From Candidatus Limnocylindrales bacterium (GTDB lineage Bacteria > Chloroflexota > Limnocylindria > Limnocylindrales > CSP1-4): a stretch of DNA of 64,000 bases. How positions within the stretch are numbered: position 1 is the first letter of the stretch; every line of letters begins with the position of its first letter. The stretch spans positions 12,719-76,718 of the forward strand of contig JANWLH010000039.1 in NCBI GenBank assembly GCA_025450915.1, read 5' to 3'. Position numbers and translations under genes: made by a program. The notes under the pieces are model-generated. The model worked only from the letters and a program-made list of their open reading frames with translations, was not told the origin of the DNA and ran no database searches. Of this stretch, positions 1-20,468 are shown piece after piece.

Positions 1-220
1 TGTAGACCAGCACCTGGGCAGCGGCCACGAGCGGCGCGCCGATCAGCACGTACAGCCCGGCCAGGGCGGCGAAGCTGACCATCATCGCCAGCCCGCAGCG
101 GATGATGTCGCGGAGGGTGACGACGAGGATGGCCGTGCCGATCATGACCGTGCTCAGGATGATGAACAGGAGGTCATCCCAGCCGAGGTTGATGAACGGC
201 ACAGCGTCCGGTATCGCCAC
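1..220 (-). CDS. nuoJ: NADH-quinone oxidoreductase subunit J, 5' end only (gene continues past window start)
   Basis: Reverse-complement translation VAIPDAVPFINLGWDDLLFIILSTVMIGTAILVVTLRDIIRCGLAMMVSFAALAGLYVLIGAPLVAAAQVLVY matches the NuoJ N-terminus (AQxLVY motif). GTG start at 220 is preceded by a GGAGAGAGGAG Shine-Dalgarno. Lies 70 nt downstream of the G' gene on the same strand. Confidence 0.7.
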   Translation of the reverse strand, partial: MAIPDAVPFINLGWDDLLFIILSTVMIGTAILVVTLRDIIRCGLAMMVSFAALAGLYVLIGAPLVAAAQVLVY

Positions 221-290: not shown

Positions 291-2918
291 CTACTTCGTG
301 TGAGCGTGACCCGGCCCCGCACCGGCCCCACCACCGGCGTGACCGTTGCCTGAGCCGTTGCCATGGCCATTGCCGGCCGCGCCGCCGGGACCGGCGGCCA
401 GCTCGGCGACGACCGCCGCAGGCAGGACCGGCAGCAGCCGGCCGGGATCGACGATCCGGCCATCTGCCCGGGCGCGGTCGAGCCAGTCGCGCTCGCGCCG
501 GATGTAGGTCACCTCGGTGTCCCGATCGACCATCGCCAGGGCCATCAGGTCGATCGTCGGCTCCTGGCGGCTGGCATGGGCGAGCTCGAAGTCCGCCCCG
601 TCGCGCAGAGCATCGTACGGGCAGGCATCGACGCAGATCCCGCACAGGATGCAGCGGCTCTCGTCGACTTCGTACTTCTGGAGGATCCGTGGCTTGGGCA
701 TGAGCGCGCCCGTCGGGCAGGTCTCGGCGCACCGCCCGCAGGAGACGCAGGGCGTGTCGTTCAGGCTCATGTCGAGCGGCGTCGTGACCAGGGTGTCGAA
801 GCCGATCCGCATGAAGTCGTAGCAGGCGGCGCCGACGACCTCCGCGCAGACCTGGGCGCAGCGCCCGCAGTCGATGCAGCGCGACGGCTCGCGCAGGATG
901 AATGCGTGGCTGTCGTCGCGAATGTAGTCGTGGTTGATCCCGGTAAACCGGTTCTCTGACACGCTCCGATAGCCCGCGCCCTGGTGGAAGCCGGGCTCGA
1001 GGGTCGGCAGGGTGGTGCCGTACTCGATGCCCAGGCGGCGCAGGTCACAGAAGCCGATCGCCTCGCAGGTGCACTGGAGGCAGCGGGTGCTCTCGGCGAC
1101 CGCCTCGGCCGGGCTGTACGGGATCTCGTACTCGACATAGCTCTTGTTGCGCAGCTCCGGGTCCATGGCCTTGAGCCGGTAGCGGGGCTCCTTGACCTCG
1201 CTCGTGAACGGCACGATCGAGAGGAACTCGGGCTGCGGCTCGGCCAGCGTCTGGCGGGTCTTGAGCGCACCCAGATCGAGGCCCTTGACGAACGCGTCGA
1301 CGGCATAGGCGCTGCGCCGGCCCTCCGCGACCGCGGCGACCACGGTTGACGCCCCGATCCGGACGTCGCCCGAAGCGAACACGCCCGGCCGGCCGGTACC
1401 GAAGGTGACCGCATCGGCCTTCAGCCGGTGCTGTTTCGTCGTCTCGAGTCCAGCCGAACCGGGTCCGATCCAGGCCAGGTCCGGCCCCTGGCCGATCGCC
1501 AGCAGGACCCGGTCGCATTCGATCGTGAACTCGGTGCCCGGCGCTGGTTCGGGTCGGCGCCGGCCCGAAGCGTCTGGCTCGCCCATCTTGTTGCGGATGA
1601 ACTCGACCCCATTGACCCGGCCCTTGGCGTCGACCAGGACCCGGATCGGCGCGGCCTGGAAGATCGCCGTGGCGCCTTCCTCGATCGCCTCGTGGACCTC
1701 GTCGGACGCGGGCATGTCCTTCATGTCGCGGCGATAGACGAGGGTCACCTCGGCCGCCCCCTGGCGAATCGACGTGCGGGTGCAGTCCATCGTGGTGAAG
1801 CCGCCGCCGATGACCACGACCCGCTTGCCGGCATGGCCCGGGAACGGCAGTCCCAGGGTCGCCGTCTTGAGGTAGTCGAGTCCCTCGAAGACGCCGTCGG
1901 CGTCCTCGTTCGGGACCCCCAGCTTGTTCGTCGCGTAGCAGCCGATCGTGACCAGGACCGCGTCGTAGCCCTGGCCCTGCAGGTCATCCAGGCTGAAGTC
2001 GCGGCCGAGGCCCTGGTTGCACTCGATCCGGCCGCCCAGGCGCGAGATGCTTTCGTACTCGGCCTCGAGGATCTCGACCTTGGGTAGCCGGTACTGGGGG
2101 ATGCCGTAGCGGAGCATCCCGCCGGGGGCCGCGTCACGCTCGAAGACCGTCACCTCGTGGCCGGCGATCAGCAGGTAATACGCGGCGGCCATGCCGGCCG
2201 GGCCCGAGCCGATCACGGCGACCCGCCGGCCGGTCTTCGGCTGGACCTCGTACGGGACCGGTGGATCAACGCCCTCGTTGAGCATCGCCCTGATCACCTG
2301 GTCGCCCGCGTACCGGTGGCTGTCCCGGATCGCGATCGCCTCGTCGACCTCGTCCCGCCGGCAGTGCTCTTCGCATGGGGCCGGACAGACCCGGCCGAGG
2401 ATGGACGGGAACGGGATCGTGCGCTTGAAGATCCGGCTCGACTCGCGCCAGTTGCCCTCGGCGTTCTGCTTGAGGAAGCCCGGGATGTCGATGTGACTGG
2501 GGCACTTGTTCTGGCAGGGCGGCAGGCAGTAGGCGTTGTGATCGCTGAAGATGAACTCGAGGTTCGTCTTGCGCAGGCGGCGCACCGCTTCGGTCTGGGT
2601 GGCGACCTTCATGCCTTCTTCGGCCGCCCGCGAGCAGGAGATCGGCGGATGCTCCTCGCCCTCGACCTCCACGACGCACATCCGGCAGGCACCGAAGCCG
2701 GGCAGCTTGGGTTCGTAGCACAGGGTCGGGATCTCGATCCCGTTGTCGCGGCAGACCTCGAGGATCGTCTGGCCGGCGCGACCCTCGACGACCCGCCCGT
2801 CGACCTCGACCCGGATCACCGGATCCGACTGCGGGCGCTGGGGCGCCTGGGTCGTGAGCAGGCGCTCGGACAGGGAGATCTCGGGCGGCGGGGCAGGGCG
2901 TGCGATCAGCTCGGTCAT
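291..2918 (-). CDS. Multidomain iron-sulfur flavoprotein at the NuoG position: NuoG-type [2Fe-2S] domain + GltD-like FAD/NAD(P)H module + C-terminal multi-[4Fe-4S] ferredoxin region; no molybdopterin-like domain; His/Gly-rich C-terminal tail
   Basis: N-terminal 2Fe-2S motif CYEPKLPGFGACRMCVVEV...ISCS. The GltD-like block matches E. coli GltD along its length (GRVCPAPCEEHC, GRRVAVIGSGPAGMAAAYYL, GGMLRYGIPQYRLPK, NEDADGVFEGLDYL, GKRVVVIGGGFTTMDCTRTSIRQGA, MGEPDASGRRRPE, VFASGDVRIGASTVVAAVAEGRR). C-terminal part carries CIDCGRCAQVC, CVSCGRCAETCP and CILCGICVDACP. Tail is GNGHGNGSGNGHAGGGAGAGPGHAH. Start overlaps the nuoF stop (ATGA). Confidence 0.8.
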   Translation of the reverse strand: MTELIARPAPPPEISLSERLLTTQAPQRPQSDPVIRVEVDGRVVEGRAGQTILEVCRDNGIEIPTLCYEPKLPGFGACRMCVVEVEGEEHPPISCSRAAEEGMKVATQTEAVRRLRKTNLEFIFSDHNAYCLPPCQNKCPSHIDIPGFLKQNAEGNWRESSRIFKRTIPFPSILGRVCPAPCEEHCRRDEVDEAIAIRDSHRYAGDQVIRAMLNEGVDPPVPYEVQPKTGRRVAVIGSGPAGMAAAYYLLIAGHEVTVFERDAAPGGMLRYGIPQYRLPKVEILEAEYESISRLGGRIECNQGLGRDFSLDDLQGQGYDAVLVTIGCYATNKLGVPNEDADGVFEGLDYLKTATLGLPFPGHAGKRVVVIGGGFTTMDCTRTSIRQGAAEVTLVYRRDMKDMPASDEVHEAIEEGATAIFQAAPIRVLVDAKGRVNGVEFIRNKMGEPDASGRRRPEPAPGTEFTIECDRVLLAIGQGPDLAWIGPGSAGLETTKQHRLKADAVTFGTGRPGVFASGDVRIGASTVVAAVAEGRRSAYAVDAFVKGLDLGALKTRQTLAEPQPEFLSIVPFTSEVKEPRYRLKAMDPELRNKSYVEYEIPYSPAEAVAESTRCLQCTCEAIGFCDLRRLGIEYGTTLPTLEPGFHQGAGYRSVSENRFTGINHDYIRDDSHAFILREPSRCIDCGRCAQVCAEVVGAACYDFMRIGFDTLVTTPLDMSLNDTPCVSCGRCAETCPTGALMPKPRILQKYEVDESRCILCGICVDACPYDALRDGADFELAHASRQEPTIDLMALAMVDRDTEVTYIRRERDWLDRARADGRIVDPGRLLPVLPAAVVAELAAGPGGAAGNGHGNGSGNGHAGGGAGAGPGHAHTK

Positions 2919-4204
2919 CGGGCGGCTTGCTCCGCGGCGGGCTGGAGCTTCGCGTCCAGCTCGGGTCGGAAGTATCGCATCACGCTGGTCATCGGAAGTG
3001 TCGCCAGGCGCTCGTGGTCACACAGGCCGCTGGCGACGATGTCCGCGGACAGGTCGCCGATCAGGTCCGCATCCGTCGGTCGCGGGGTCCCGGCATTGAT
3101 CCGGACCGCGATCTCCTCGAGGCGCCGAGTCCCGATCCGGCAGGGGATCGTCTTGCCGCACGCCTCGGTGGAGCAGAACCTGGTGAGGAGCTCGGCGAGC
3201 TCGAGGACGTCGGCGTTGGCGGCCGTGGCGACGATCGAGCCCGAGCCGATGTGCGCCCCGGCCGTCCGCAGGTCGTCGAAGGTATACGGGGTGTCGAGCA
3301 GGTCGGCCGGCAGGATTCCGCCCGATGGTCCGCCGACGAGGAGGGCCTTGGGCGGCGGGCCGGTCCGGGTCGTTGCCCCGACGAGGCCCAGGATCGTCCT
3401 GATGGTCGTGCCCAGCGGCACTTCGGCAACGCCCGCGCCGCCCGTCCCGCGGACGTGGACGAGGATCGTGCCCGGGGCATCAGGCGTGCCGATCGTCCGG
3501 AACTTGGCCGCACCTTCATGCATGATCCAGGCCGCCAGGGCCAGGGTCTGCACGTTCTGGACGACCGTTGGGCGGCCGAAGAGCCCGCGCTCGGCGGGAT
3601 GCGGTGGCCGCTGCTCGGGCTGGCCGCGCCTGCCCTCGAGCGCCTTGAGCAGGACGGTCTCCTCGCCGAGCATGTAGGCACCCTGGACCGGGCGGACCTC
3701 GACGTTGAGCTCATGGCCGGTGTCGAGGACGTCGCCACCGATGAAGCCGGCGTCCTCGGCGGCCCCGAGGGCGGCCTCGAGCCGCCGGATTGCCTCGGTC
3801 TCGGTCGCCCGGACGGCGATGATCGCGGTGTCGGCACCGATCGCCCAGGCGGCGATCGCGACGCCCTCGATCACGGCGTATGGGTCGCGCTCGATCAGGG
3901 TCGCATCGGTGCGCGTGGCGGGGTCCGCGCCGTAGCCGTTGGCCACGACGTAGCGCCGATCGGCAGGGGTGGTTGCGGCCAGGTGCCACTTGTCGGCCGT
4001 CAGGAAGCCCGCGCCGCCCCGACCGCGCAGGCCGGCCGCCCGGATCTCCGCGATGACGCCGGGAGGGGCGAGCCGTACCGCGATCCTGAGGCCCTCGAAG
4101 GCGCCGGCCTTGACGGCCGCGTCGAGATCGGTCGGATCCTTGGCGCCGGCCCGTCCCAGGATGGGCTGGGGCCAGCTCGCGGGTGTCTTGAGGAGGTCGG
4201 TCAT
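2915..4204 (-). CDS. nuoF: NADH-quinone oxidoreductase subunit F (51-kDa flavoprotein) with a variant N3-cluster motif
   Basis: FMN motif LRGRGGAGF and NADH motif YMLGEETVLLKALEGRRGQP are present. The N3 region reads STEACGKTIPCRIG...LCDH, where the canonical ESCGxCxPCR middle cysteine is absent. Confidence 0.85.
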   Translation of the reverse strand: MTDLLKTPASWPQPILGRAGAKDPTDLDAAVKAGAFEGLRIAVRLAPPGVIAEIRAAGLRGRGGAGFLTADKWHLAATTPADRRYVVANGYGADPATRTDATLIERDPYAVIEGVAIAAWAIGADTAIIAVRATETEAIRRLEAALGAAEDAGFIGGDVLDTGHELNVEVRPVQGAYMLGEETVLLKALEGRRGQPEQRPPHPAERGLFGRPTVVQNVQTLALAAWIMHEGAAKFRTIGTPDAPGTILVHVRGTGGAGVAEVPLGTTIRTILGLVGATTRTGPPPKALLVGGPSGGILPADLLDTPYTFDDLRTAGAHIGSGSIVATAANADVLELAELLTRFCSTEACGKTIPCRIGTRRLEEIAVRINAGTPRPTDADLIGDLSADIVASGLCDHERLATLPMTSVMRYFRPELDAKLQPAAEQAAR

Positions 4205-4208
4205 CGGA

Positions 4209-4877
4209 TCAGTGCACGCGTCCAGAGGGCTTCGTCGTGCCCGAGATCGCCTGGCCGAGGCCGCTCAGGTAGTCACCTTCGATGACCTCCCGGTCGGTGG
4301 CCGCCCCCTTGGATGGAGCCGGGGGTGCGAACCGGAGGTGGTCGTAGTACGTCGCCGTTCCGTAGACCATCGCGTACCAGGCCCCGGTCCCGAAGCTGAT
4401 CCGCTTGAGCGCCGCGACCGGCAGGTAGCCGTAGGCGGCCTGGGTCGCGGCAAGGATCTCGAGCATCCGCTTCGGATCGTGGTCGGCGTCGTGCAGGATC
4501 GCGTCGACCGGCCCGAGGTCGATCGGGCTCCAGTGCTCGTAGGCCACGTCGGGCACGGTCCGTCCGGCGCGGCGCAGGGCAGACTCCTCGCGCCGCTCGC
4601 CGTACGTCTCGGAGGCACCCCAGTGCACGGCGTAGCGACCCTTCGTGTCGACGCCGCCCATGTCGATGCACTCGATCGGGCAGGCCTGGGCGCACTGGAA
4701 ACAGGTCTCGCACTTGAGCGTGCCGTGCTCGTCGTAGAGGAGTTGCAGCCGGCCTCGGAACTTGGGCGAGACATCGGCCGGGACCTCCGGGTACAGGATC
4801 GTGGCCTTGGGCTGGAAGAACCGGAGCAGGGTCAGGCCCATCCCGCGCACGATGCCCAGGCCCGGGATCAGGCTCAT
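4209..4877 (-). CDS. Fusion protein: N-terminal NuoI-like domain with a single [4Fe-4S] motif + C-terminal NuoE N-terminal helical domain lacking the [2Fe-2S] thioredoxin-like domain
   Basis: YPEVPADVSPKFRGRLQLLYDEHGTLKCETCFQCAQACPIECIDM aligns to the NuoI first cluster region. The second CxxCxxCxxxCP motif is absent in all frames. C-terminal LEILAATQAAYGYLPVAALKRISFGTGAWYAMVYGTATYYDHLRF aligns to the NuoE N-terminal segment (..LPxxAxxxIxxxLGxxxxxVYGVATFYxxF). No Cys-bearing NuoE domain fits before the nuoF start 4 nt downstream. Confidence 0.7.
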   Translation of the reverse strand: MSLIPGLGIVRGMGLTLLRFFQPKATILYPEVPADVSPKFRGRLQLLYDEHGTLKCETCFQCAQACPIECIDMGGVDTKGRYAVHWGASETYGERREESALRRAGRTVPDVAYEHWSPIDLGPVDAILHDADHDPKRMLEILAATQAAYGYLPVAALKRISFGTGAWYAMVYGTATYYDHLRFAPPAPSKGAATDREVIEGDYLSGLGQAISGTTKPSGRVH

Positions 4878-4887: not shown

Positions 4888-6228
4888 TCACCGGTTCACG
4901 ACCAGGATGGCGCCGGCGGTCACGAACAGGTTGAGCAGGGACGCCGGCAGCAGCCACTTCCAGGCAAAGCCCATGAGCTGGTCGATCCGGACCCGCGGCA
5001 GGGTGCCCCGCATCCACACGAACGTGAAGACGAAGACGTAGGTCTTGCCCATGAACCACAGCAGGCCCACGACCCAGTCGAAGCTCACGAAGGCCAGCCC
5101 GAGGACCGCGGCGACCGCGAGCAGGTTGAACAGCACGAAGCCGATGATCAGGGCCTGCCAGAACTTGACCTGGCTGTTGAGCAGGTAGAACGGCAGTCCG
5201 AGGACGACGATCGCCAGCGGCGGGCCGAGGGCCAGCAGGAAGAGCAGGCCGATCCCCAGACCGCCCGGATCGAGGCCGACGGTCACCGGCCAGGGCCAGT
5301 TGAACGGGGCGTTCCAGCCGCCCATGAACAGGGCGACGGTCAGGCCCGAGGCGATGAACACATTGACGTACTCGGCGAAGAAGAAGAAGCCGAAGCGCAT
5401 CCCCGAGTACTCGGTGGCGAAGCCGGCCACGATCTCCGAGTCGGCCTCGGTCAGGTCGAACGGCGTCCGGTTCGCTTCGGCGGTCACCGCGATGAAGAAG
5501 ATCACGAACGCCAGCGGCTGGCGAAAGACGTACCAGTCCAGGACGGTGCCGGCCTGCCCGAGGACGATCTTGTTGATGCTCAAGGTGCCCGCGAGGAGCA
5601 CCACCCCGACGACCGACAGGGTCAGCGGGATCTCGTAGCTGACGATCTGGGCCGCCGAGCGCAGGCCGCCCAGGAGCGAGTACTTGTTGAAGCTGGCCCA
5701 GCCGGCCATCAGCAGGCCGACGACGGTCAGGCCGCCCATCGCGAAGAAGTACAGCAGCCCGATGTTGAAGTCCTGGCCGAAGATTCCCGGGGCGAACGGC
5801 AGGACGAGCAGCGACATGACGCTCGACATGTAGACGACGACCGGCGCGAGGGTGAAGACCGGCACGTCGGCGCTCGTCGGGGTGAAGTCCTCCTTCATCA
5901 GGACCTTGAGCCCGTGGACCACCGAGAGCGCCGAGCCGAACGGGCCCACCCGGTCCGGGCCGTAGCGCAGGTTCATCAGCGCGATCACCTTCATCTCCAT
6001 GTAGATGATCAGGAAGGCGCTGGGCACGGTCATCAGGAGGACGATCGTGGCGGCCACCACGAACCGGACGAGCGGCAGGTTGTCGACCAGGAACTGGACG
6101 ACTGCCCCGCCGACCAGGGCGATCAGCACGGCCAGGCCGGCCGTCAGGACCGCTCCGAGGGGGATGACGACTGCCAGGATCTTGCCCGGGATCGTCAGCC
6201 GCTCCCAGGTCCTTCCAACCACGGTCAT
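4888..6228 (-). CDS. nuoH: NADH-quinone oxidoreductase subunit H
   Basis: Polytopic membrane protein with NuoH hallmarks (EYSGMRFGFFFFAEY, RTPFDLTEADSEIVAGF). Confidence 0.9.
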   Translation of the reverse strand: MTVVGRTWERLTIPGKILAVVIPLGAVLTAGLAVLIALVGGAVVQFLVDNLPLVRFVVAATIVLLMTVPSAFLIIYMEMKVIALMNLRYGPDRVGPFGSALSVVHGLKVLMKEDFTPTSADVPVFTLAPVVVYMSSVMSLLVLPFAPGIFGQDFNIGLLYFFAMGGLTVVGLLMAGWASFNKYSLLGGLRSAAQIVSYEIPLTLSVVGVVLLAGTLSINKIVLGQAGTVLDWYVFRQPLAFVIFFIAVTAEANRTPFDLTEADSEIVAGFATEYSGMRFGFFFFAEYVNVFIASGLTVALFMGGWNAPFNWPWPVTVGLDPGGLGIGLLFLLALGPPLAIVVLGLPFYLLNSQVKFWQALIIGFVLFNLLAVAAVLGLAFVSFDWVVGLLWFMGKTYVFVFTFVWMRGTLPRVRIDQLMGFAWKWLLPASLLNLFVTAGAILVVNR

Positions 6229-7464
6229 CTACTTGTCCACCCCGCCCATGACCGGATCGAGCGAGGCCATGATCGCCATCGTGTCGGCGATCAGGTTGCC
6301 GGGCGTCAGCAGGCCGACGGCCTGGAGGTGGACGAAGCTCGGGTCGTGGATCCGCATCCGATACGGCTGGTCCGTCCCGTCGCTGATCGCGTAGGTCGAG
6401 TACTGGCCGCGCGGGCCTTCGACCGCCGCGTAGGCCCGGCCCGGCCGGGGGCGGATGAGGCGGGGCATCTTGGCCATGACCGGCCCGTCGGGCATCTCGT
6501 GGAGGCACTGGTCGATGATCCGCAGGCTCTGCTTGATCTCGTCCATCCGGAGCAGGTAGCGGGCCAGGCAGTCACCCTCGGTCCGCGACGGAATGTCGAA
6601 GTCCAGCTCGGGATAGATGCTGTACGGGTGGGCCCGGCGGACGTCGAAGGGAACGCCGGTCGCCCGCAGGTTCGGGCCGGTCATGCACATGTTCAGCGCG
6701 GTGGCCGTGTCGATGACCCCCAGGCCCCGGGCGCGCCGGACGAAGATCTCGTTCTCGTTGAGCAGGGCGTTGTTCGAGTCGATCTGGTGGGTTGCCTTGC
6801 TCATCCAGGTGCCCAGCCGGCTCATGAACTCATGGTTCAGGTCGCCGTTCACCCCGCCGATCCGGAAGTAGTTGAAGAGCATCCGCTGGCCGGTCAGGGC
6901 CGCCAGCATCTCGACGATCTCGTCGCGCTCGATGAAGCTCCACAGGATCGGCGTCAGGCCGCCCAGGTCGAGCGCGAACCAGCCCATGAAGAGGGCGTGG
7001 CTGGCAATCCGGTTGAGCTCACCCGAGAGGACCCGGATGTACTCCGCCCGACGGGGCACCTGCACGTCGAGGAGCTTCTCGAAGGCGATCACCGGCGACC
7101 ACTCGCAGAAGAGCGAGCTGATGTACTCGAGAGGATCGGTGTAGCAGATCGCCTGGTGGTAGTCGGCGTTCTCGCACAGCTTCTCGACGCCCCGGTGGAG
7201 ATAGCCCAGGACCGGATCGAGATCGACGACGTTCTCGCCGTCGATCTTGAGGACGATCCGGAGAACGCCGTGGGTCGACGGGTGCTGAGGGCCCATGTTC
7301 ACGAACATCTCGCCGTCGCGGAGCGTGTAGAACTCGGCCTCGCGCTCCGTCCGGGGCGGGTACGGCGGGATCGGCTCGAACGTGCCGAGAGCCTCGTCGA
7401 GGGTGACCCGCGGATCGTCCGACGAGGCGTGGGCGGGGATGTCGAAGGGCGTTCGGGTGGTCAT
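6229..7464 (-). CDS. nuoD: NADH-quinone oxidoreductase subunit D (49-kDa)
   Basis: 411 aa with HRGVEKLCE and the NuoD C-terminal region. Abuts the nuoH start. Confidence 0.9.
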   Translation of the reverse strand: MTTRTPFDIPAHASSDDPRVTLDEALGTFEPIPPYPPRTEREAEFYTLRDGEMFVNMGPQHPSTHGVLRIVLKIDGENVVDLDPVLGYLHRGVEKLCENADYHQAICYTDPLEYISSLFCEWSPVIAFEKLLDVQVPRRAEYIRVLSGELNRIASHALFMGWFALDLGGLTPILWSFIERDEIVEMLAALTGQRMLFNYFRIGGVNGDLNHEFMSRLGTWMSKATHQIDSNNALLNENEIFVRRARGLGVIDTATALNMCMTGPNLRATGVPFDVRRAHPYSIYPELDFDIPSRTEGDCLARYLLRMDEIKQSLRIIDQCLHEMPDGPVMAKMPRLIRPRPGRAYAAVEGPRGQYSTYAISDGTDQPYRMRIHDPSFVHLQAVGLLTPGNLIADTMAIMASLDPVMGGVDK

Positions 7465-7481: not shown

Positions 7482-8033
7482 CTAGCTCGACGAGGCCTGG
7501 CGGACGTGGGCGGCCGTCTCGGCGTTCGTCGGCCCGTGCGTCTGCTCCATCGGTCGAACGCCGCCACCGGGCGAGCGCGAGGCGTCATCGGGCAGGAAGA
7601 AGTCCTTGCGCAGCGGGAAGCTCGTGTAGTCCGGCGGCATGTAGATCCGGCGCAGGTCGCGATTGCCCTCGAAGGTGATCCCGAACATGTCGTACGCCTC
7701 GCGCTCCATCCACTCGGCGCCCTTCCACAGGAACGTGACCGAGGGGACCCGCGGGTCGTCGCGGGAAAGGCCGTCGGCGATCACCCGCAGCCAGTCGGCC
7801 GACGAATCGCTCCACAGGTGATAGACAGTCTGCATCGTCGTGCCGGTGTCGACGCCGGCCAGGTCCGAGAGGAGCCGGAAGCGGAGATCGGGCTCATCGT
7901 GGAGGGCGAGCATCACCTCGGGCAGGTCACCGGGCGCGATCCGGATCTCCGTCTCGTCATGGCGCTGGCGCACCGGGCCGGTGAGCTCCTCGCCGAACCG
8001 GGCCTCGAGGCGGCGCCGCAGGGCTCGATCCAC
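7482..8033 (-). CDS. nuoC: NADH-quinone oxidoreductase subunit C (30-kDa), separate from NuoD
   Basis: 183 aa, NuoC-like (..[32 protein letters not shown]..). Confidence 0.85.
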
Positions 8034-8738
8034 CTACAGGTCCTCGGGCACGGTGGGGCCGATCGGCCGGTCGGGCCAGTGGCCGCGGCGGTCCTTGATC
8101 AGCTGCTGGAGCTTCATCATCCCGTAGATCAGGCCCTCGGGGCGGGGCGGGCAGCCGGGCACGTAGACATCGACCGGCATGATCCGGTCGATCCCCTGGA
8201 TCGTGCTGTAGCTGCGCTTGTAGCGGCCACCCGAGCAGGTGCAGTCACCCATCGCCACGCACCATTTCGGCTCGGGCATCTGCTCCCAGAGACGGACGAG
8301 CGGGCCGGCCATCTTCGTCGTGCAGGTCCCGGCCACGATCAGGACGTCGGCCTGGCGCGGCGATGCCCGGAACGGGAACATTCCCCAGCGGTCCATGTCG
8401 TTCTTGCTGGTCGCCGCGGACATCATCTCGATGGCGCAGCAGGCCAGCCCCGAGAGCAGCGGCCAGAGGCTGTTGGCCCGGATCAGGTCGAGGACGATAT
8501 CGGCCTTGGTCGGGATGATCTCGAGCGGCCCGGCCCAGCGAGCGTTGTCGCGCCGGCCGAGACCCGATTCCTCGAACTCGCGCAGGTGGGTGATGTCCGA
8601 TTCCTGGCCGCCGTTGTAGGCGACCGGGTTGCTCGACTGCCAGAGCGTGTTCGGGACGATCACGGGCTCGACGAGATCGCGGCCCTCGGTGATGACCGCG
8701 GGCAGGTTGCCCACTGGTCCGTCGGGCTTCAGCGCCAC
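8034..8738 (-). CDS. nuoB: NADH-quinone oxidoreductase subunit B (20-kDa, N2 cluster) with ~60-aa N-terminal extension
   Basis: [30 protein letters not shown] motifs. Start overlaps the nuoA stop. Confidence 0.9.
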
Positions 8739-9085
8739 GTGAGAACCCCCTTGCGCCAGGCGTAGGCGAGGCCCAGCAGCAGGATGCCCACGAACAGCAG
8801 CATGCTCACGAAGCCCCCCAGCAGGACGCTCCGGAAGACGATCGCCCAGAGGTAGATGAAGATCACTTCGATGTCGAACGCCACGAACAGCAGGGCGTAG
8901 ATGTAGAACGACAGGCCGAATCGGCCGTGGGTGTCGCCGAACGTGTCGATCCCCGACTCATACGGCAGGCCCTTGTGGACGTCGCCACGGTTGCGGTGGG
9001 AGATCAGCCACGCCGCACCGATCGTGAGGAACACGAACGAGACACCGGCGACGCCGAACCCGACGATGTACCAGATCCCGGTCAA
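8729..9085 (-). CDS. nuoA: NADH-quinone oxidoreductase subunit A
   Basis: 118 aa, 3 TM helices, NuoA-like. First gene of the nuo operon, with 300 bp of intergenic sequence upstream. Confidence 0.85.
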
Positions 9086-9391: not shown

Positions 9392-10591
9392 CTACCGTGC
9401 GGGTTGGCTCCGGCCCAGGCCCATGAGCGGCGGTTGCGGATCGAGGCCGCGCCCGAGGAGGACCGCCCGGAACCCGCCCAGCGCGGCCGGATCCAGGAGC
9501 CGGGCAATCGCCGAGCGCAGGCCGAGCCACTCCTCCATCGACGTCTTCGGATTCGAGCGAACCCGGTCGACCAGCTCCTCGAGTCCGCAGCCCACCAGGA
9601 GCTCGGCCTGGCTCACCTCGCCGAGCACGGTGAGCTCGTGGGTCCGAGCGGCGGCCTCGAGCGCGGTCAGGTCGACGTGGGCCGTCAGGTCCTGGCGGCC
9701 GACCGCGATGAACGGGTCGGCGTGGGCGCGCTGGCCGGAGTACGCCCGCAACGTTCCGCCGCGCCGGGCCGGATCGTAGAGCGCCGGCGCCTGATGGCCG
9801 TAGTCGATGACCAGGACGAGGCCCTGCTCGAGGTCCGCCGCGACCCCGGCCAGCCAGGGTTCGACCTCGAGGCAGACCTCGCCGACCTGGCCGTCGAGCA
9901 GCGTGACGCCGTCCTCGTCGAGCCGGGCGGCCAGCGCATCGGTCGACGGTTCGCCGGGCTGCTCGACCAGCCTGCCGGCAGCGTCATCCCAGGCCACGAA
10001 CAGCTCCCGAAGCCGGCAGCCGTCCTGCTCGACACGATGGACGGGCAGGGCATCGAGGAACTCGTTGGCCAGGACGACGCCCGTGAACCGGCTCGGGCCG
10101 CCCGCCCGCCTGGTCCTGGCGGCCGGCCCGAGGCGTTCGACGGCCTCGGTGCGGCGCACCTCGTTGATCTCGACTGGCTCGTAGCGCAGCACGTCCCCGA
10201 GGCCCGAGTCGTCGGCGCGCAGGCCATCGAGGATCGCTGCGGCGAGCGTCCCGGATCCCGCACCGTACTCGCGCATGACGAACGGGTCGGGTCGCTCGAG
10301 GCGCCGCCAGACCTCGTCCACCTGCCGGCCGATCACTGCCCCGAAGATCGGATGGAGCTCCGGCGCCGTGAGGAAGTCGCCACTCCGGCTCGGCCGGTCG
10401 GCGGCCACCCGGTAGTAGCCGTGGTCGGGGTCATACAGCGCGATCGCCATGAACCGGGCGAACGTCAGCGGCCCGCTTGCAGCGATCTCGGCCCGGATGC
10501 GCTCGATGAGCACCGGCTCGCTGTCCGTTGCCAGGGGCCCGGCCGGCTCATCCCGGCGGAGCCCGGGCTCGAAGGGCTTCGGTCCGCTCAA
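9392..10591 (-). CDS. MidA/NDUFAF7-family (DUF185) class I SAM-dependent methyltransferase
   Basis: GDFLTAPELHPIFGAVIG...REYGAGSGTLAAAIL matches the MidA/NDUFAF7 signature (GDFxTAPE + GxGxG SAM motif). Immediately upstream of nuoA on the same strand. Confidence 0.75.
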   Translation of the reverse strand: MSGPKPFEPGLRRDEPAGPLATDSEPVLIERIRAEIAASGPLTFARFMAIALYDPDHGYYRVAADRPSRSGDFLTAPELHPIFGAVIGRQVDEVWRRLERPDPFVMREYGAGSGTLAAAILDGLRADDSGLGDVLRYEPVEINEVRRTEAVERLGPAARTRRAGGPSRFTGVVLANEFLDALPVHRVEQDGCRLRELFVAWDDAAGRLVEQPGEPSTDALAARLDEDGVTLLDGQVGEVCLEVEPWLAGVAADLEQGLVLVIDYGHQAPALYDPARRGGTLRAYSGQRAHADPFIAVGRQDLTAHVDLTALEAAARTHELTVLGEVSQAELLVGCGLEELVDRVRSNPKTSMEEWLGLRSAIARLLDPAALGGFRAVLLGRGLDPQPPLMGLGRSQPAR

Positions 10592-10601
10592 GCGTTGCTG
10601 C

Positions 10602-11663
10602 TCAGGCAGTCGCGACGAGCCGGATCCCAGGTCCGACCAGGGAGTGGCCGCCGAGGAGGATCGGGATCGTCGCGCCGGCAGCCGACCGGGTCAGCGCGGC
10701 CAGCCAGGGATCGGCGATCGAGTCGGCCTGGAGCAGGTCCGAGCCGAACCGGTCCTCGGCCACCGGCCAGGTCGATTCGTCCGCTCCGAGACGATGGGCG
10801 AGGAGGACCCGGCTGTCGATCAAGGCCGCGTCGCCCAGCTCGGCCAGGCGGACGCCGAGCGCCGCCGGCCCGTCGGAGTCGAGGATCGAGCCCAGAACGG
10901 AACGTGGCGGCCGCTGGGGACGATCGGTAGGCAGGCGGACCGAGGCGTGCAGCCCGCGCTCCTCGACGAGCGCCCTCACGCGGCACCGGGCGAAGCCTTC
11001 GAGCCAGCTCAGCACGGCGGCCGATGTCCGGCCGGCGATCACGAGCTCGGCCGCCGCGTCGTCGAGGACCCGGCGGATCCCCGCGAGGCGCTCGATGACC
11101 GGGCCATCTTCGGGGTGGTCGCCGGGATCGATCGACGCCTCGCGCCGGCCGAGCAGGACGAGATCGAGGGGCGAATCGAGGTCCACGCCGAGACGCTGGC
11201 GTGCCCGCAGGTCGGCGACCGGGATTCCCGCCTGCTCCGACAGCCAGCGCGGCAGCACGTTGTCGGTCGCGAGGTCCGCCGGCACGGCCCGGAGCCAGCC
11301 GGCATCGGCGACCGCCAGGACATCGGACGAGAAGCGATTGTTCGTGACGGCCATCGGCCCGCCACCTCCGGCGCACGCCACGAACGCCCGCCGATCGACC
11401 AGGCCGGCCAGGGGGATGGCCCCGGAGCCGAGGAGGATCAGGCCGCCATCGGGAACGTCGGGCAGCGCCTGCGCGAGCCGGCTGCCGAACGGCAATCCGT
11501 CGGGCAGTCCCGCGACGATCCGCACGGTCGTGGCCCCGGCGCGCAGGAACCCGGTCTCGTGGACCCGCGCGAGCCGCTCCCTGGCGAGCGCAAGGCGGCG
11601 TTCGAGGATCCCGGACCCGGGGCCGGCCTGCGGGTGGAAGATGAGGACGGTGATCGGACGCAC
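10602..11663 (-). CDS. Hypothetical protein (function unknown)
   Basis: ~354-aa ORF with a GTG start at 11663 (VRPITVLIFHPQAGPGSG...). Codon usage is consistent with neighbours. No motif recognised. Confidence 0.45.
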   Translation of the reverse strand: MRPITVLIFHPQAGPGSGILERRLALARERLARVHETGFLRAGATTVRIVAGLPDGLPFGSRLAQALPDVPDGGLILLGSGAIPLAGLVDRRAFVACAGGGGPMAVTNNRFSSDVLAVADAGWLRAVPADLATDNVLPRWLSEQAGIPVADLRARQRLGVDLDSPLDLVLLGRREASIDPGDHPEDGPVIERLAGIRRVLDDAAAELVIAGRTSAAVLSWLEGFARCRVRALVEERGLHASVRLPTDRPQRPPRSVLGSILDSDGPAALGVRLAELGDAALIDSRVLLAHRLGADESTWPVAEDRFGSDLLQADSIADPWLAALTRSAAGATIPILLGGHSLVGPGIRLVATA

Positions 11664-11721
11664 GGACCGAGTGTATGGGGCCCGGCGGCCGGAGTCCTCG
11701 GAGCCATGTTCTGGAGGTCGG

Positions 11722-12358
11722 GTTGGCGCAGCGGCGGGTTCGGGCGTATGTGGGCCTGGGGGCCAACCTCGGTGAGGCGGCCGGGACCCTGGCCGCGGCG
11801 ATCCATGCCCTGGCGGCACTGCCGGATTCGCGTCTCGTAGCGGTCTCGCGGCTGTATGCCACCGATCCGGTCGGCGACACGGATCAGCCCGAGTTTCGCA
11901 ACGCCGCGGTCGCGCTCGATGTGCCGGCGGGACCCGATCTCGCCACGGGCGCAACGTTCCTGCTCGTCGCCCTCAAGGGCCTCGAGATCGCCTTCGGCCG
12001 CCAGGCGCGACGTCGCTGGGGGCCGCGCGAACTCGACCTCGACCTGCTCGTCTTCGGGCGGGCTCGGCTGGCGATCGATCGCCCCGCCGCGGCTCGCTCG
12101 CGGGACGCCGTCGTTGATCCGGCGAAAGCGAGTCGCCTGCTCGAGGTCCCGCACCCTTCGGCGGCCGAGCGCCTCTTCGTCCTGGCGCCGCTCGCCGACC
12201 TGGCCGAGGGCCTGATTCCGGCGGGCTGGCACGAGAGCGTTGCCAGTGCTCGCCGCCGTCGCGAGATCGCCGAGGGTCCGACCGCGGTCCGGCCGATCGC
12301 CGAGTGGGATCGCGTGGCCGGCGACTGGCGCCCGCTCGCGGAGCCAGCCTCGACCTAG
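11722..12358 (+). CDS. folK: 2-amino-4-hydroxy-6-hydroxymethyldihydropteridine pyrophosphokinase (HPPK)
   Basis: RAYVGLGANLG...SRLYATDPVGDTDQPEFRNAAVALD...RRWGPRELDLDLLVFG matches HPPK. The exact start (TTG 11722, GTG 11748, or ATG 11675) is uncertain. Confidence 0.8.
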
Positions 12359-12414
12359 AGACGGACGCGCTAGAGACGGACGCGCTACAGACGGACGCGC
12401 TACAGACGGACGCT
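12357..12414. repeat. 15-bp tandem repeat, ~3.9 copies (AGAGACGGACGCGCT / ACAGACGGACGCGCT)
   Basis: Direct reading of 12357–12414. The folK stop (12356–12358) and the glpX stop (12400–12402, minus strand) both fall inside the array. Confidence 0.9.
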
Positions 12415-13389
12415 TGGCGGCCGCGACCGGTCGAACATCTGGACCGTGTCGACGAAGCGGACATGCGCTTCGCGATAGGACATCACCAGTGAGTGGGTCC
12501 GGGCGCCGCCGCCGAAGAAGCGAACGCCGTCGAGGAGGTCGCCGCTGGTCACCCCAGTCGCCGCGAAGAGCAGGTTGTCGCCCGAGGCCAGGTCTGCGGT
12601 GAAGTAGACCCGGCTCTCGTCGTCGTCGTTGCCCATCTGCTTCGCCCGGACCCGCTCGTCGTCGTTGCGGAACCGGAAGCGGGCCTGGATCTCGCCACCG
12701 AGGCAGCGCAGCGCGGCCGCCGTGATCACGCCCTCCGGTGCCCCGCCGATGCCCATGACGGCGTGCACGCCGGTGCCCGAGACAGCGGTGCTGATCGCCG
12801 CCGAGAGGTCGCCGTCGGAGATCAGCTTGATCCGCGCCCCCGCGGCTCGAACCTCCGCGATCAGCTCATCGTGGCGGGGTCGCTCGAGGATGACGATCGT
12901 GATATCGGCGACCCGCCGGCCGAGTGCCTCGGCAATCAGGTGGCAGTTCTCGGTGGGCGACTTGCGAATGTCGACCTTGCCGGCCACGACCGGGCCGACG
13001 CACAGCTTCTCGAGGTACGTGTCCGGGGCATGGAGCAGGCCGCCGCGCTCGGCTGCGGCCAGGACGGTGATCGCGTTCGCCTGGCCGTGGGCCACGAGGT
13101 TCGTGCCCTCGAGCGGATCGACGGCGATGTCGATCGCGGTCGACGCTTCGCGGGCTTCGACGCCCTTTCGCCCGACCTCCTCGCCGATGTACAGCATCGG
13201 GGCCTCATCGCGCTCGCCCTCGCCGATGACGATCGTCCCGGCCATGTCGATCTCGTCCATCGTCCGGCGCATCGCCTCGACCGCGGCCCGGTCGGCGTCG
13301 TCCTTGGCGCCGCGGCCCATGTAGCGAGCCGATGCGATCGCCGCGGCCTCCGTGACCCGGACCATCTCCAGCGCAAGCAGCGGCTCCAT
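12400..13389 (-). CDS. glpX: Fructose-1,6-bisphosphatase class II (GlpX)
   Basis: 329 aa. ..[34 protein letters not shown].. are typical of GlpX. Confidence 0.9.
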
Positions 13390-13400
13390 GCGGCAGTCCC

Positions 13401-14948
<1,548 letters not shown>

Positions 14949-15141
14949 CCGGGCATCCTCCGTCCAGCGTTCGCGGCTCTCGCGGGCGCCCCGATCCGCG
15001 ACCGCCCGGCGCTTCGGGGCGAATCAGGGTCGTCTGTCGGCAGGCGGTGCCGCACCTGCGGCCGAGTATAGCGTCCCGGCGTGGCATACTCGGGACCCTC
15101 GCCCGGCCTCCAGCCACGGTCCGACAAGGAGAATCCAACCG

Positions 15142-15609
15142 GTGACGCTGCTTCCCTGGGAATACATGTTCCAGTCGTTCAGCGCCTCGAACTTCCACGA
15201 CCTGTTCTACCCGATTGCGCTCGGCTCGCTGGTTCTGCTGATCGCCCTGTGCGTCCTGTATGCCGTCCGGACGCGAGCGCTGCGCCACCACCCGCCGTAC
15301 CTCGACCTGTACGAGTGGCTGCTATGGACGGGGATCATCGCCTTCGGGCTGCTCCTGATCTTCAGCATCTTCGTCTGGGACTTCATCTTCGTGCTGGCCA
15401 CGGTCATCACGTCGGCCGTGGTCTTCGTCTGGGTCCGCTTCGTCCGGTTCCCGCCGATCCTGGCGATGTACGAGCAGAAGCTCGCTCGCCAGCGCTACCT
15501 GAGCCGCCAGAAATACGCCCACCCCGAGGCGACGATCCGCACGAAGTCGAGCCGGCCGACGCGGGTGGTTCGGGCCGCTCCAGCCAAGCGGACGCGCAAG
15601 CGCCGCTAG
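15142..15609 (+). CDS. Small integral membrane protein (3 predicted TM helices, basic C-terminal tail)
   Basis: GTG start at 15142 follows an AAGGAGA Shine-Dalgarno. Hydrophobic segments LFYPIALGSLVLLIALCVLYAV, LLWTGIIAFGLLLIFSIFVW, FIFVLATVITSAVVFVWV. Confidence 0.55.
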   Translation: MTLLPWEYMFQSFSASNFHDLFYPIALGSLVLLIALCVLYAVRTRALRHHPPYLDLYEWLLWTGIIAFGLLLIFSIFVWDFIFVLATVITSAVVFVWVRFVRFPPILAMYEQKLARQRYLSRQKYAHPEATIRTKSSRPTRVVRAAPAKRTRKRR

Positions 15610-15615
15610 CGGGCG

Positions 15616-16100
15616 TGGAGATTCGACGGTTCGGGATCGGCCAGCGACGGCCCGACGGTCCCGCCGGAACGCACAACGTCGAGGCTGCGGTCATCGAATC
15701 AGGGCCGCGCGGCGTGGTCGCCGAGCTGGCCTTCGCGCGCCACGCGGCGATCGAGACGCACACCAATCCGAACACCGCCTGGTTCGTGGTCATCGAGGGC
15801 GGCGGCTTCGTGACAGTGGGTGCGGACCGGGCCCGGGTCTTCGCGGGCGAAGCCGTCCTGTGGCCGGCCGGGGTGCCCCACGGCGCATCGACCGAGCTGT
15901 CCGAGATGCGGGCGATCGTGGTCGAGTTCCCGGTCGCCGACCTTGCCCTGGGTCCCGGCGCGGCGATCCTGGATGCCGGCGTGCTGCCCTCGGCGCCCTC
16001 GGCTCGCTCGGAGGCCGCGAAGGTCGTTGCCCCGGCCGACGGGCACCTCGTTGATGAGCGGCCGGCGCCGTACGACCCCCGCCACGGCGAGCCGCGCTAG
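15616..16100 (+). CDS. Cupin-domain protein
   Basis: Cupin motifs ..AIETHTNPNTAWFVVIEGGG.. and ..GEAVLWPAGVPHGASTE... GTG start 6 nt after the upstream stop. Confidence 0.6.
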
Positions 16101-16170
16101 GCTGAACGGCCGCGTACGGGCTCGGGCTCCGTTGCGGCCCGACGCCCAGGAGCCGCCGATGCGGGACGTG

Positions 16171-16350
16171 CACCCAGTACAACAGAACCCCGTTTTCGAC
16201 CCGTTCCTTCGGCGGGGTGCCCTGCCCGCAGCATCGCATCCGGCGATTTCATGCCGCGCCACGCTCACGGCGGAATGATTCCTGCCGCCGAGGCGCGAGG
16301 CGACTGGGTCGAACCCCTGGAAATCGCCCGTTTGTTGTTCTGGGTACACG
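16171..16350. repeat. Imperfect long inverted repeat (arms ~16171–16203 and ~16305–16350) enclosing nested GC-rich stems; candidate structured element
   Basis: Arm 1 is CACCCAGTACAACAGAACCCCGTTTTCGACCC. The reverse complement of arm 2 is GTACCCAGAACAACAAACGGG...GGTTCGACCC, sharing ACCCAG, ACAACA, AAC and TTCGACCC blocks. Internal CTTCGGCGG / CCGCCGAGG pairing also present. Confidence 0.35.
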
Positions 16351-16612
16351 CATTGCCGTGATCGTGTTCGCCGCGGCCCGGGCATGGCCAGGGTCTGTCA
16401 GCCGTGGGGCCCCGGGAAGCGTGGGCACCGAGGGGATGGGATGGTGGCCGGTCGAGCGACGTGCGTCGCGACTCTCCTCGCCAACGTTGCCGGACCCCTC
16501 GACGACGAACAGACCACTCGCATGGCGGGCGGGCGCTCGTCCGCCGGAAGGCGCCAATCTCATCACCCGGCTGATGTCGCCGACGTTTGTGCCGGCCCAA
16601 GCTGGGCCGCAA

Positions 16613-16763
16613 TACCACGACTAACCTCAAGTCGACGGGTTGTGCGGGGCTCAGGCCCGGATCGGGACCAGGTGGCGCCGTCCTGGCCACTGGAATACCA
16701 CGACGATTCTTGGAACGAGGCGGAAAGGCGTTGGCAGCCGTCCGGCCAAGGTTAGTCGTGGTG
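16613..16763. repeat. MITE-like element, copy A (~151 bp) with perfect 13-bp terminal inverted repeats
   Basis: Left TIR ACCACGACTAACC at 16614–16626; right TIR GGTTAGTCGTGGT at 16750–16762. Internal TIR-like ACCACGACGATTC. Confidence 0.65.
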
Positions 16764-16804
16764 CGAGGCCAGGTCCAACGAGCGTCGCGTCTCGGACCCG
16801 GCGG

Positions 16805-16952
16805 TACCACGACTAACCTTATGCGGCGGGTTGAGCACGGCTCAGGACCCGAATCGGGACCCATGGGCCATCCTGGCCGCTGGAACACCACGACGATTCG
16901 TAGAACGAATCGTCGGGCGTCGCGAGCCGTCGGCCTAAGGTTAGTCGTGGTG
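16805..16952. repeat. MITE-like element, copy B (~148 bp), ~75–80% identical to copy A, same perfect TIRs
   Basis: Left TIR ACCACGACTAACC at 16806–16818; right TIR GGTTAGTCGTGGT at 16939–16951. Conserved cores GCTCAGGNCCGNATCGGGACC and TCCTGGCCNCTGGAANACCACGACGATTC. Internal hairpin ACGATTCG-TAGAA-CGAATCGT. Confidence 0.65.
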
Positions 16953-16986
16953 TCGGGGCGCCAGAGGGGTCGGGGCGCCAGAGGGG
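16952..16986. repeat. 17–18-bp direct repeat x2 (GTCGGGGCGCCAGAGGGG TCGGGGCGCCAGAGGGG)
   Basis: Direct reading, immediately 3' of MITE-like copy B. Confidence 0.8.
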
Positions 16987-17025
16987 CCGGGCCAGCGCCA
17001 GAATGGCGTCCGGAGCGCAGGACAG

Positions 17026-17699: not shown

Positions 17700-17700
<1 letters not shown>
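17026..17700 (-). CDS. NUDIX hydrolase, CoA pyrophosphatase-like
   Basis: NUDIX box HSGEVSFPGGKVEPGDADLEATALREAEEEVGL. Start ATG overlaps the clpB stop (TGATG). Confidence 0.8.

Positions 17701-20468
<2,768 letters not shown>

Follow-up and report, generated by a model that had tools for sequence, protein, structure and literature searches.

The 64-kb window studied here, a stretch of contig JANWLH010000039.1 from a Candidatus Limnocylindrales bacterium with a G+C content of about 70%, carries a nuo operon for respiratory complex I in which an 875-amino-acid (aa) protein, called the target below, joins a NuoG-like iron-sulfur (Fe-S) scaffold to a GltD-type flavoprotein module and a series of ferredoxin motifs. 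The locus raises the question of what such a protein does in complex I and how it is held to the rest of the enzyme. Our analysis indicates that the target is probably the large Fe-S flavoprotein of a module for electron input that stems from the NfnABC/StnABC (Bfu-family) bifurcating transhydrogenases, has become an integral part of complex I and would likely make it a non-bifurcating NAD(P)H:quinone oxidoreductase. Positions are those of the window throughout.

The target gene and its domains

The target is encoded by an 875-codon open reading frame (ORF) that runs from ATG to TAG on the minus strand (291..2918) with no interruption; a preliminary description of the locus had reported the same ORF with its strand unstated. 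There is a 4-nucleotide (nt) overlap between its ATG and the stop of the nuoF-like gene upstream. The ORF is 100% identical to a protein (P0001) of a Ca. Limnocylindrales metagenome-assembled genome (MAG; GCA_036561665.1), and a chance ORF is ruled out because of this identical protein together with hundreds of full-length homologues. The gene and its parts are:

291..2918, minus strand: target gene, 875-aa NfnA/StnC-like subunit (NuoG-equivalent) ending in the NuoI C-terminal half (ORF; PDB 9bov_A, E = 5e-159)
2565..2819, minus strand: N-terminal [2Fe-2S] domain (A1/N1b-type), aa 34-118, C67/C78/C81/C95 (Pfam Fer2_4, E = 5e-21)
1083..2528, minus strand: GltD/NfnL-like inserted module, aa 131-612, with two [4Fe-4S] sites including A7, a flavin adenine dinucleotide (FAD) site and an NADPH site (Fer4_20, Pyr_redox_2 and GltD models)
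1047..1082, minus strand: CxxCxCx5C, aa 613-624, second part of the NuoG-type His-ligated cluster motif (PF10588 after excision)
699..899, minus strand: HoxU/HydA/Nqo3-type 2x[4Fe-4S] domain, aa 674-740, equivalent to NfnA A2/A4 (Fer4_Nqo3; FeFe_hydrog_A 2-75)
534..689, minus strand: NuoI C-terminal half, aa 744-795, second CxxCxxCxxxCP (C756/759/762/766) plus flanks (TIGR01971 71-116/121)
294..533, minus strand: conserved post-NuoI segment (to about aa 839), then His/Gly-rich low-complexity tail, aa 796-875

Pfam and NCBIfam recognise Fer2_4 (aa 34-109), Fer4_20 (aa 131-208), Pyr_redox_2 (aa 232-533), Fer4_Nqo3 (aa 674-739) and Fer4 (aa 749-772) in the intact protein, with GltD models spanning aa 133-546 and the start of the NuoG His-cluster motif (its first 17 positions) at aa 116-132; neither collection finds a molybdopterin domain in the target. 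The Cys/His sites are C67/78/81/95, H127 with C131/135/139, C178/182/186 and C613/616/618/624. They are followed by three ferredoxin-type sets (C681/684/687/691, C724/727/730/734 and C756/759/762/766), one of the form CxxCxxCxxxC and two of the form CxxCxxCxxxCP, where only a pair had been counted before. An FAD motif (GSGPAG) and an NADPH motif (GGGFTTMD...VYRRDMKDMPA) are present and conserved. Pfam, NCBIfam and the Cys pattern together bear out the succession given in the preliminary description, namely a NuoG/FdhA-type 2Fe-2S domain, a GltD module with its dinucleotide motifs, ferredoxin motifs and a His/Gly tail.

The GltD insertion breaks the His-cluster motif, which starts as H127-x3-C131 and resumes at aa 613-624. 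When aa 131-612 were excised in silico, the remaining 230 aa matched HoxU (4-210/238, E = 4e-45) in one continuous stretch, and the excised protein also matched NuoG models and the N-termini of group A6 [FeFe] hydrogenases in one stretch each. The PF10588 score rose from 21.2 bits (model positions 1-17) in the intact protein to 30.5 bits (1-36/40) after excision, against a cut-off of 27. These one-stretch matches show that the GltD module has been inserted cleanly into a NuoG/HoxU-type scaffold, within its His-cluster loop. The N1b [2Fe-2S], N5 His-ligated [4Fe-4S] and N4-type domains of NuoG are all found in the target by this continuous match. The earlier picture of a NuoG-like Fe-S scaffold with a complete GltD insertion and no molybdopterin-like domain stands, both on the excision test and on the lack of a Pfam molybdopterin match.

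Relation to NfnA and StnC

The best PDB match of the target is NfnA of Caldicellulosiruptor saccharolyticus (Csac; 9bov_A, target aa 34-766 against residues 3-699). Further solved relatives are an archaeal NfnA (9n5u_A) and Sporomusa ovata StnC (8oh5_C), and identity to NfnA/StnC is 37-42% over aa 34-766. AlphaFold2 (AF2) prediction of the whole target from a 50-sequence alignment gave good models of the [2Fe-2S] and GltD parts, the latter with predicted local distance difference test (pLDDT) values of 80-95. Foldseek searches with this model ranked NfnA, StnC and archaeal NfnA as the top three, with NfnL/GltD also among the top matches.

The large subunit of Nfn/Stn comprises a [2Fe-2S] N-domain, a GltD/NfnL-like FAD/NADPH domain and an Fdh/NuoG-like part (PMC11829005; PMC10482914). 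The combination of [2Fe-2S], GltD and ferredoxin domains is already known, both from NfnA/StnC of the solved enzymes (9bov, 9n5u, 8oh5) and from NCBIfam PRK12814. The earlier statement that such an insertion had not been described consequently holds for complex I, in the literature searched, but fails for the protein family.

The target shares with NfnA/StnC the order of the [2Fe-2S] domain, the GltD/NfnL-like insertion with two [4Fe-4S], the His-motif cluster and the HoxU-type 2x[4Fe-4S] domain, and it keeps every NfnA cluster site except A5. Unlike NfnA/StnC, it has no Fdh/molybdopterin-like C-terminal domain and no A5, and carries the NuoI C-terminal half there instead: it ends 110 aa past the A4 motif, the 9bov_A alignment stops at residue 699 of 1178, and the NuoI motif aligns where NfnA has the first Cys motif of the molybdopterin-like domain (cluster A5). 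It differs further in being encoded inside a nuo operon and not as part of a soluble enzyme, in belonging to a separate clade (100/100 bootstraps, see below), and in having partner proteins that lack the bifurcation core (C1, B2-B5).

A ligand exchange accompanies these differences. The A7 ligands of Csac NfnA, C108/C147/C151/K170, map to C139/C178/C182/H201 of the target. The Csac NfnABC paper calls the Lys170 ligand conserved in all Bfu members (PMC11829005); the corresponding position 201 (codon at window 2316-2318, minus strand) is His in 19 of 19 complex-I-linked sequences and Lys in 45 of 45 NfnA-like proteins. One may speculate that His in place of Lys170 re-tunes the first cluster to another downstream potential.

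Family-membership tests place the target, by sequence, outside NfnA/StnC proper, NuoG, NuoI and GltD. It reaches 102 bits with the NuoG model TIGR01973 (cut-off 470), over model positions 1-98 only, and 239 and 323 bits with the GltD models TIGR01317 (cut-off 448) and TIGR01318 (cut-off 483). GltD proper is a separate protein of roughly 470 aa with GltB as its partner; no gltB was found in the fetched loci, where the neighbours of the target are nuo genes. A genuine glutamate synthase small subunit and a merely adjacent formate dehydrogenase subunit were both considered and rejected, given the scores below family cut-offs, the lack of gltB and of a molybdopterin domain, and the invariant nuo embedding.

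NuoI motifs in two polypeptides

The preliminary description assigned the gene to the NuoG position. On the source contig, however, the operon reads nuoA-B-C-D-H-[NuoI N-half + NuoE N-domain]-[NfnB-like NuoF]-[target]-J-K-L-M-N, and the target sits between the nuoF-like gene and nuoJ, that is, within a split nuoI, whereas the canonical place of nuoG is between F and H. The first of the bracketed genes encodes a 222-aa protein with two parts:

4626..4877, minus strand: NuoI N-terminal half, aa 1-84 of the 222-aa protein, first CxxCxxCxxxCP (C56/59/62/66) (E. coli NuoI 6-86, E = 2e-11)
4209..4625, minus strand: linker plus NuoE/NfnC N-terminal helical domain (about aa 118-187), aa 85-222 of the 222-aa protein (PF01257 2-63/145; NfnC 9bov_C 20-88)

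Canonical NuoI holds both CxxCxxCxxxCP motifs in one polypeptide, whereas here one motif lies in the 222-aa protein and one in the target. The N-terminal half of the 222-aa protein has a single motif and covers TIGR01971 positions 1-66/121, and target aa 744-795 match P. denitrificans NuoI 93-141 (E = 2e-12), E. coli NuoI 92-132 and TIGR01971 71-116/121. The top nine NCBIfam matches of the C-terminal piece are all NuoI models, its best single-stretch PDB matches are likewise NuoI, and the similarity extends beyond the Cys motif (YEVDESRC...CPYDAL...FELA). Spliced together, the two halves match TIGR01971 1-116/121 in one stretch (E = 2e-29; 101.4 bits, cut-off 113.05). No second NuoI-like gene was found in the operon or elsewhere in the 64-kb window.

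By these sequence matches, NuoI is split in two, with each half fused to a protein of the module and an Nfn-type cassette lying inside nuoI. The ancestral operon was probably an 11-gene nuoABCDHIJKLMN, with an nfnC-nfnB-nfnA cassette now inside nuoI. The earlier idea that the C-terminal ferredoxins compensate for the one-motif NuoI-like protein survives for the last motif (aa 744-795), but the preceding pair belongs to the HoxU/HydA-type scaffold domain.

Past the NuoI half, R807, D811 and P830 are nearly invariant in the post-NuoI segment. The His/Gly-rich tail (GNGHGNGSGNGH...GHAH; aa 840-875, window 294-401, minus strand) is variable in sequence; it is present in all Limnocylindria homologues and in none from Thermoleophilia, and is possibly metal-binding or a flexible spacer.

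Distribution, conservation and a sister family

Full-length homologues of the target with more than 80% identity are very numerous and, where named, belong to Ca. Limnocylindria or Limnocylindrales (Chloroflexota). Existing annotations are generic, either 'FAD-dependent oxidoreductase' or 'formate dehydrogenase major subunit'. In a species-level scan, with one genome per species and the C-terminal 201 aa of the target as query, at least 487 species-level genomes encoded a relative of this region, and the best 80 were at least 90% identical over the full length. The operon order A-B-C-D-H-I'E'-F-target-J-K-L-M-N was found in all 86 fetched loci; this shared order and the covalent fusion to a NuoI half confirm the earlier view that the protein is nuo-linked and not merely adjacent.

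In roughly 60 distinct orthologues, none of the 29 cluster Cys of the target varies, nor does H127; for the Cys of the N-terminal [2Fe-2S] domain this holds in about 63. The Cys/Pro motif of the NuoI N-half is likewise invariant in 58 orthologues, and the Cys of the C613-C624 motif are invariant both in the target family and in 45 NfnA-like proteins. Across 50 complete loci, the median identity of the target (82.1%) is on a par with that of NuoB (83.4%) and NuoD (85.3%).

At 50% clustering, the next relatives are NfnA-like proteins of 1000-1260 aa with about 42% identity. P0138 (816 aa) is an exception: it, too, has a NuoI C-half at its end, and it belongs to a family of at least 120 clusters from MAGs of Thermoleophilia (Actinomycetota). 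This family has the same operon and the same NuoI breakpoints as Limnocylindria. Its I'E protein (253 aa) joins the NuoI N-half to a complete NuoE/NfnC with the [2Fe-2S] Cys, and in its B subunit (about 640 aa) BfuB is complete, from the thioredoxin-like N-domain through the canonical ESCGKCVPC motif to the 2x[4Fe-4S] at the C-terminus. The NADPH motif is degenerate in P0138 (GDGFAAAE, no YRR) but not in most of its Thermoleophilia relatives.

In a neighbour-joining tree of 19 complex-I-linked and 45 NfnA-like sequences (667 columns), the complex-I-linked proteins of the two phyla form one clade in 100 of 100 bootstraps. They also have Cys699 in common, a position held by Ala, Val or Ile in the 45 NfnA-like proteins. 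The single clade and the shared His201 and Cys699 show that the fusion has a single origin. Convergence, with a separate fusion in each phylum, was considered and rejected on the same breakpoints, the shared H201/C699 and the 100/100 clade.

Several NfnA-like representatives of 800-850 aa (P0129, P0153, P0162, P0185, P0188 and P0223) all end in '...NN[IV]DHCARL', which corresponds to the selenocysteine position of FdhA-type enzymes. They are probably ORFs cut at a TGA selenocysteine codon; if so, genuine GltD-containing (seleno)formate dehydrogenases exist.

Proposed assembly and electron path

In Nfn/Stn, electrons pass from NADPH to FAD and through A7-A6-A3-A2-A1 to the B1 cluster and flavin mononucleotide (FMN) of NfnB, and A2-A4-A5 form a side branch to an empty pterin site, which has been called a non-functional evolutionary remnant (PMC11829005; PMC10482914). 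The NfnC N-domain wedges between NfnA and NfnB in NfnABC (PMC11829005). We propose that in the Limnocylindria complex the two NuoI halves, with one CxxCxxCxxxCP each, would assemble a normal 2x[4Fe-4S] fold (N6a/N6b) across two polypeptides, each cluster taking three Cys from one chain and one from the other. The NuoI so assembled would dock the module onto NuoB/D/H, replacing the contacts of the NuoG large domain, and the NuoE-like N-domain would act as a second tether of the module.

The complex I chain runs from N5/N4 to N6a, N6b and N2. In the enzyme proposed here, NADPH would reduce the FAD of the GltD-like insertion, and electrons would move from there through the two [4Fe-4S] of the insertion and the His-motif cluster to the HoxU-type clusters. 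They would then follow the A2-A4 branch, the 'dead end' of Nfn/Stn, to N6a/N6b, N2 and menaquinone, driving proton pumping. The NuoF-like protein, if its flavin site is still active, would feed in electrons from NADH through its own cluster and the [2Fe-2S]. We infer this path and the split-NuoI assembly from what is known of the cofactor chains of Nfn/Stn and complex I. NADPH is the predicted nucleotide of the GltD-like site because its motifs (GGGxTxMD...YRR...MPA) match those of NADPH-bound NfnA/StnC; this match, shared by the FAD motif, lends support to the NAD(P)H:Fe-S entry point that the preliminary description had offered.

Alternative explanations

Dual entry, our main reading, in which NADH comes in alongside NADPH, depends on the NuoF-like protein, whose flavin site may no longer be active.

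2915..4204, minus strand: nuoF-like gene, 429 aa, NfnB/HydB-derived flavoprotein core without both terminal Bfu domains (9bov_B 107-513)

The NuoF-like protein matches NfnB (9bov_B residues 107-513 of 584) with 312 bits, compared with at most 243 bits for genuine NuoF, and contains only 4 Cys. Few complex I subunits are normally as well conserved as NuoF; here, the NuoF-like protein ranks last in conservation among the 13 operon products, with a median identity of 65.7% in the 50 complete loci. Its flavin motif reads NGYGADP in all Limnocylindria, in place of NADEGDPG, a motif that the Thermoleophilia B subunit and all NfnB/HydB compared have in its canonical form. The N3/B1 cluster motif lacks its second Cys (CGK[T/S]IPC), a loss conserved across Limnocylindria, and the upstream candidate replacement, C344, occurs in 54 of 60 sequences and is missing from 5.

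These changes favour the strongest rival to dual NADH/NADPH entry, an NADPH-only complex I in which the GltD-type FAD is the sole entry and the NuoF-like protein, catalytically dead or flavin-less, is retained only as a scaffold for the [2Fe-2S] domain and the NuoE-like tether. We nevertheless consider it unlikely: the NuoF-like protein keeps loop 1 (GLRGRGGAGF), GEET, loop 3 and four of the five NADH contacts named for Csac NfnB (the fifth being F294, replaced by His or Tyr), its gene is intact in every locus, and the altered motifs are themselves conserved, which suggests re-tuning and not decay. As a further observation on this protein, INNVET is changed to VQNVQT, again conserved across Limnocylindria.

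Alternatively, the complex might work mainly in reverse, with flow from menaquinol, driven by the proton motive force, reducing NADP+ (and/or NAD+), so that the membrane-coupled enzyme would generate NADPH or stand in for a transhydrogenase. Both complex I and Nfn/Stn can run in either direction (PMC10482914 for Stn), and FAD/NADP(H) and FMN/NAD(H) sites on one Fe-S chain could exchange electrons between nucleotides. We regard this mode as improbable, since the sequence holds no direction signal and forward NAD(P)H oxidation is simpler for respiring heterotrophs such as the Limnocylindria, which use aerobic or nitrate respiration (PMC13212565).

The elements that define Bfu enzymes are the B1-FMN-C1 flavobicluster, the B3/B4 ferredoxin-binding domain and the B2/B5 sites, and bifurcation requires B1-FMN-C1 plus B3/B4 (PMC11829005; PMC9304861). 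The window proteins have neither C1 nor B2-B5, nor either of the terminal domains of NfnB. All Cys of the 222-aa protein lie within its NuoI half, and its second half, which is closest to the N-domain of NfnC and Cys-free, therefore has no [2Fe-2S] (C1/N1a). The missing elements make the Limnocylindria enzyme most likely non-bifurcating, and the flavin-based bifurcation once suggested for it unlikely. A module that is still a bifurcating or confurcating Nfn (Bfu) enzyme, coupling NADPH, NAD and ferredoxin with complex I as partner, would explain why all three module proteins are homologous to NfnABC and why the Thermoleophilia sister family keeps a complete BfuB and an NfnC with the [2Fe-2S] Cys, but it is very hard to reconcile with a Cys-free NfnC-like part and an NfnB-like protein without B2-B5 sites and ferredoxin-binding domain. 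For the Thermoleophilia enzyme, which retains these parts by sequence, bifurcation or confurcation is plausible. The Thermoleophilia sister operons (L005:7330-12451, L087 and L088) are candidates for a bifurcating or confurcating complex I.

Least credible of all is the suggestion that the NuoI-like pieces are generic ferredoxin motifs or decaying remnants, and the locus a defective complex I beside a soluble Nfn-like enzyme: each piece alone does fall under the NuoI family cut-offs, motifs of the ferredoxin type are widespread, and summed repeats put polyferredoxins first in the raw PDB list of the C-terminal piece, but the best single-stretch PDB matches and the top nine NCBIfam models are NuoI and reach past the Cys motif, the halves complement each other exactly and break at the same points in two phyla, hundreds of species keep every ligand unchanged, and neither the operon nor the 64-kb window holds another NuoI-like gene.

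The reading we prefer, an Nfn-derived input module built into complex I through a divided NuoI, has points against it too. The split-NuoI assembly is argued from sequence only, and the spliced NuoI stays below the TIGR01971 cut-off. AF2 assigned the C-terminal Fe-S region of the target (aa 616-811) a pLDDT of about 28; the spliced NuoI chimera, predicted without an alignment, had a mean pLDDT of 57, with four of five models below 36, and Foldseek returned no meaningful match for this prediction. The altered flavin and cluster motifs of the NuoF-like protein and its evolution, the fastest in the operon, suggest that the NADH branch may be impaired. Deleting the FdhF-like domain of StnC, on which the stability of the Stn tetramer and complex depends, destroyed that complex (PMC10482914), and loss of this domain here must presumably be compensated by the two NuoI tethers. 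Every named member of the family is a MAG, and a search for a cultured carrier found none.

Relation to known systems and significance

Complex I is considered highly conserved in its NADH entry (NuoE/F/G) and in the route from there to NuoI. The enzyme described here resembles canonical complex I in its partners NuoA-D, H and J-N, in the NuoG-type N-terminal Fe-S domains, the NuoF-type core, the NuoE N-domain and the NuoI motifs. Unlike the canonical enzyme (e.g. T. thermophilus Nqo1-3 and Nqo9), it has no NuoG large C-terminal domain and has GltD inserted; its NuoE is without the [2Fe-2S] domain, its NuoI appears split over two fused polypeptides, and there is an extra FAD/NADPH site. The gene order is ...H-I'E'-F-G'I''-J... 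here and E-F-G-H-I-J in the canonical case.

Two described systems come close. The predicted Nuo-Bfu of Geobacter and others has BfuABC-type genes in the middle of the nuo cluster, replacing NuoEFG (Schut et al. 2022, PMC9304861); its BfuA is NuoG-type without GltD, its NuoI is intact, and it occurs in Deferribacteres, Proteobacteria, Planctomycetes and Nitrospirae (PMC9304861). The window enzyme is alike in its embedded position, but the BfuBC six-cluster core is missing from the window; the Thermoleophilia relatives, by sequence, have both the embedded position and the BfuBC core. Mbx-like operons carry a gltD-related flavoprotein in place of NuoI (Degli Esposti 2015, PMC4758237). As in the present case, a GltD-type NAD(P)H flavoprotein takes the place of NuoI there and is joined to a membrane module resembling that of complex I; however, those systems are Mbx/hydrogenase-like, without NuoE/F and without the NuoG scaffold, and NuoI is reported as substituted in them, not split and fused. 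In the open-access literature searched, we found no description of a GltD/Nfn module in a nuo operon, of a split NuoI, or of Limnocylindria or Thermoleophilia complex I. What is new is the context, an Nfn-type module inside nuoI of complex I; the fusion architecture itself is known.

The input module of this enzyme is of other origin than NuoE/F/G, from the Nfn/Stn transhydrogenase, has an extra FAD/NADPH site, and appears to be attached by splitting a core Fe-S subunit. If this holds, the enzyme would be without precedent as a complex I in which NADPH has a dedicated entry, which bears on redox balance in NADPH-rich organisms without a separate transhydrogenase. It would also give a physiological role to the A2-A4 branch, deemed a non-functional remnant by two cryo-electron microscopy studies, and provide a natural 2x[4Fe-4S] ferredoxin fold built from two chains. 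The Thermoleophilia/Limnocylindria pair would form a graded series, from bifurcation-capable to stripped-down, useful for testing the roles of the Bfu core.

More tentatively, and with less than even confidence in the whole, we suggest that Limnocylindria and Thermoleophilia share an unrecognised class of complex I, in which a split NuoI bridges two polypeptides and an Nfn input module makes NADPH a direct respiratory substrate, the Thermoleophilia form being a proton-pumping, electron-confurcating complex I or an energy-linked transhydrogenase that couples NADPH, NADH and ferredoxin to quinone reduction. Both lineages are abundant and uncultured in soils and lakes (freshwater), so the enzyme is probably environmentally common.

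Other operon genes and surroundings

The remaining genes of the operon in the window are:

1..220, minus strand: start of nuoJ, which runs off the window edge (translation of 1-290; in contig L001, nuoJ lies 70 nt after the target and is followed by K, L, M and N)
4888-6228, minus strand: nuoH (Pfam)
6229-7464, minus strand: nuoD (Pfam)
7482-8033, minus strand: nuoC (Pfam)
8034-8738, minus strand: nuoB (Pfam)
8729-9085, minus strand: nuoA (Pfam)

Two of these products are longer than expected from their Pfam models. NuoB (234 aa; window 8034-8738, minus strand) has an N-terminal extension of about 99 aa, its Pfam match beginning at aa 100, and in NuoH (446 aa; window 4888-6228, minus strand) aa 61-438 cover 298 model positions. 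Their lengths suggest lineage-specific additions near the NuoI docking region.

No signs of mobile elements were found adjoining the operon in the parts inspected. Beyond it, window 9392-24207 holds genes for a Methyltransf_28 protein and glpX (both by Pfam) and, on the opposite strand, folK (Pfam HPPK); purH, clpB, a dnaJ-like gene and lon in the same region were judged by eye from ORF translations only. Far from the nuo operon and unrelated to it, window 57804-58013 (plus strand) encodes a pair of CxxCxxCxxxCP motifs that looks, by motif, GlpC/LutA/heterodisulfide-reductase-like.

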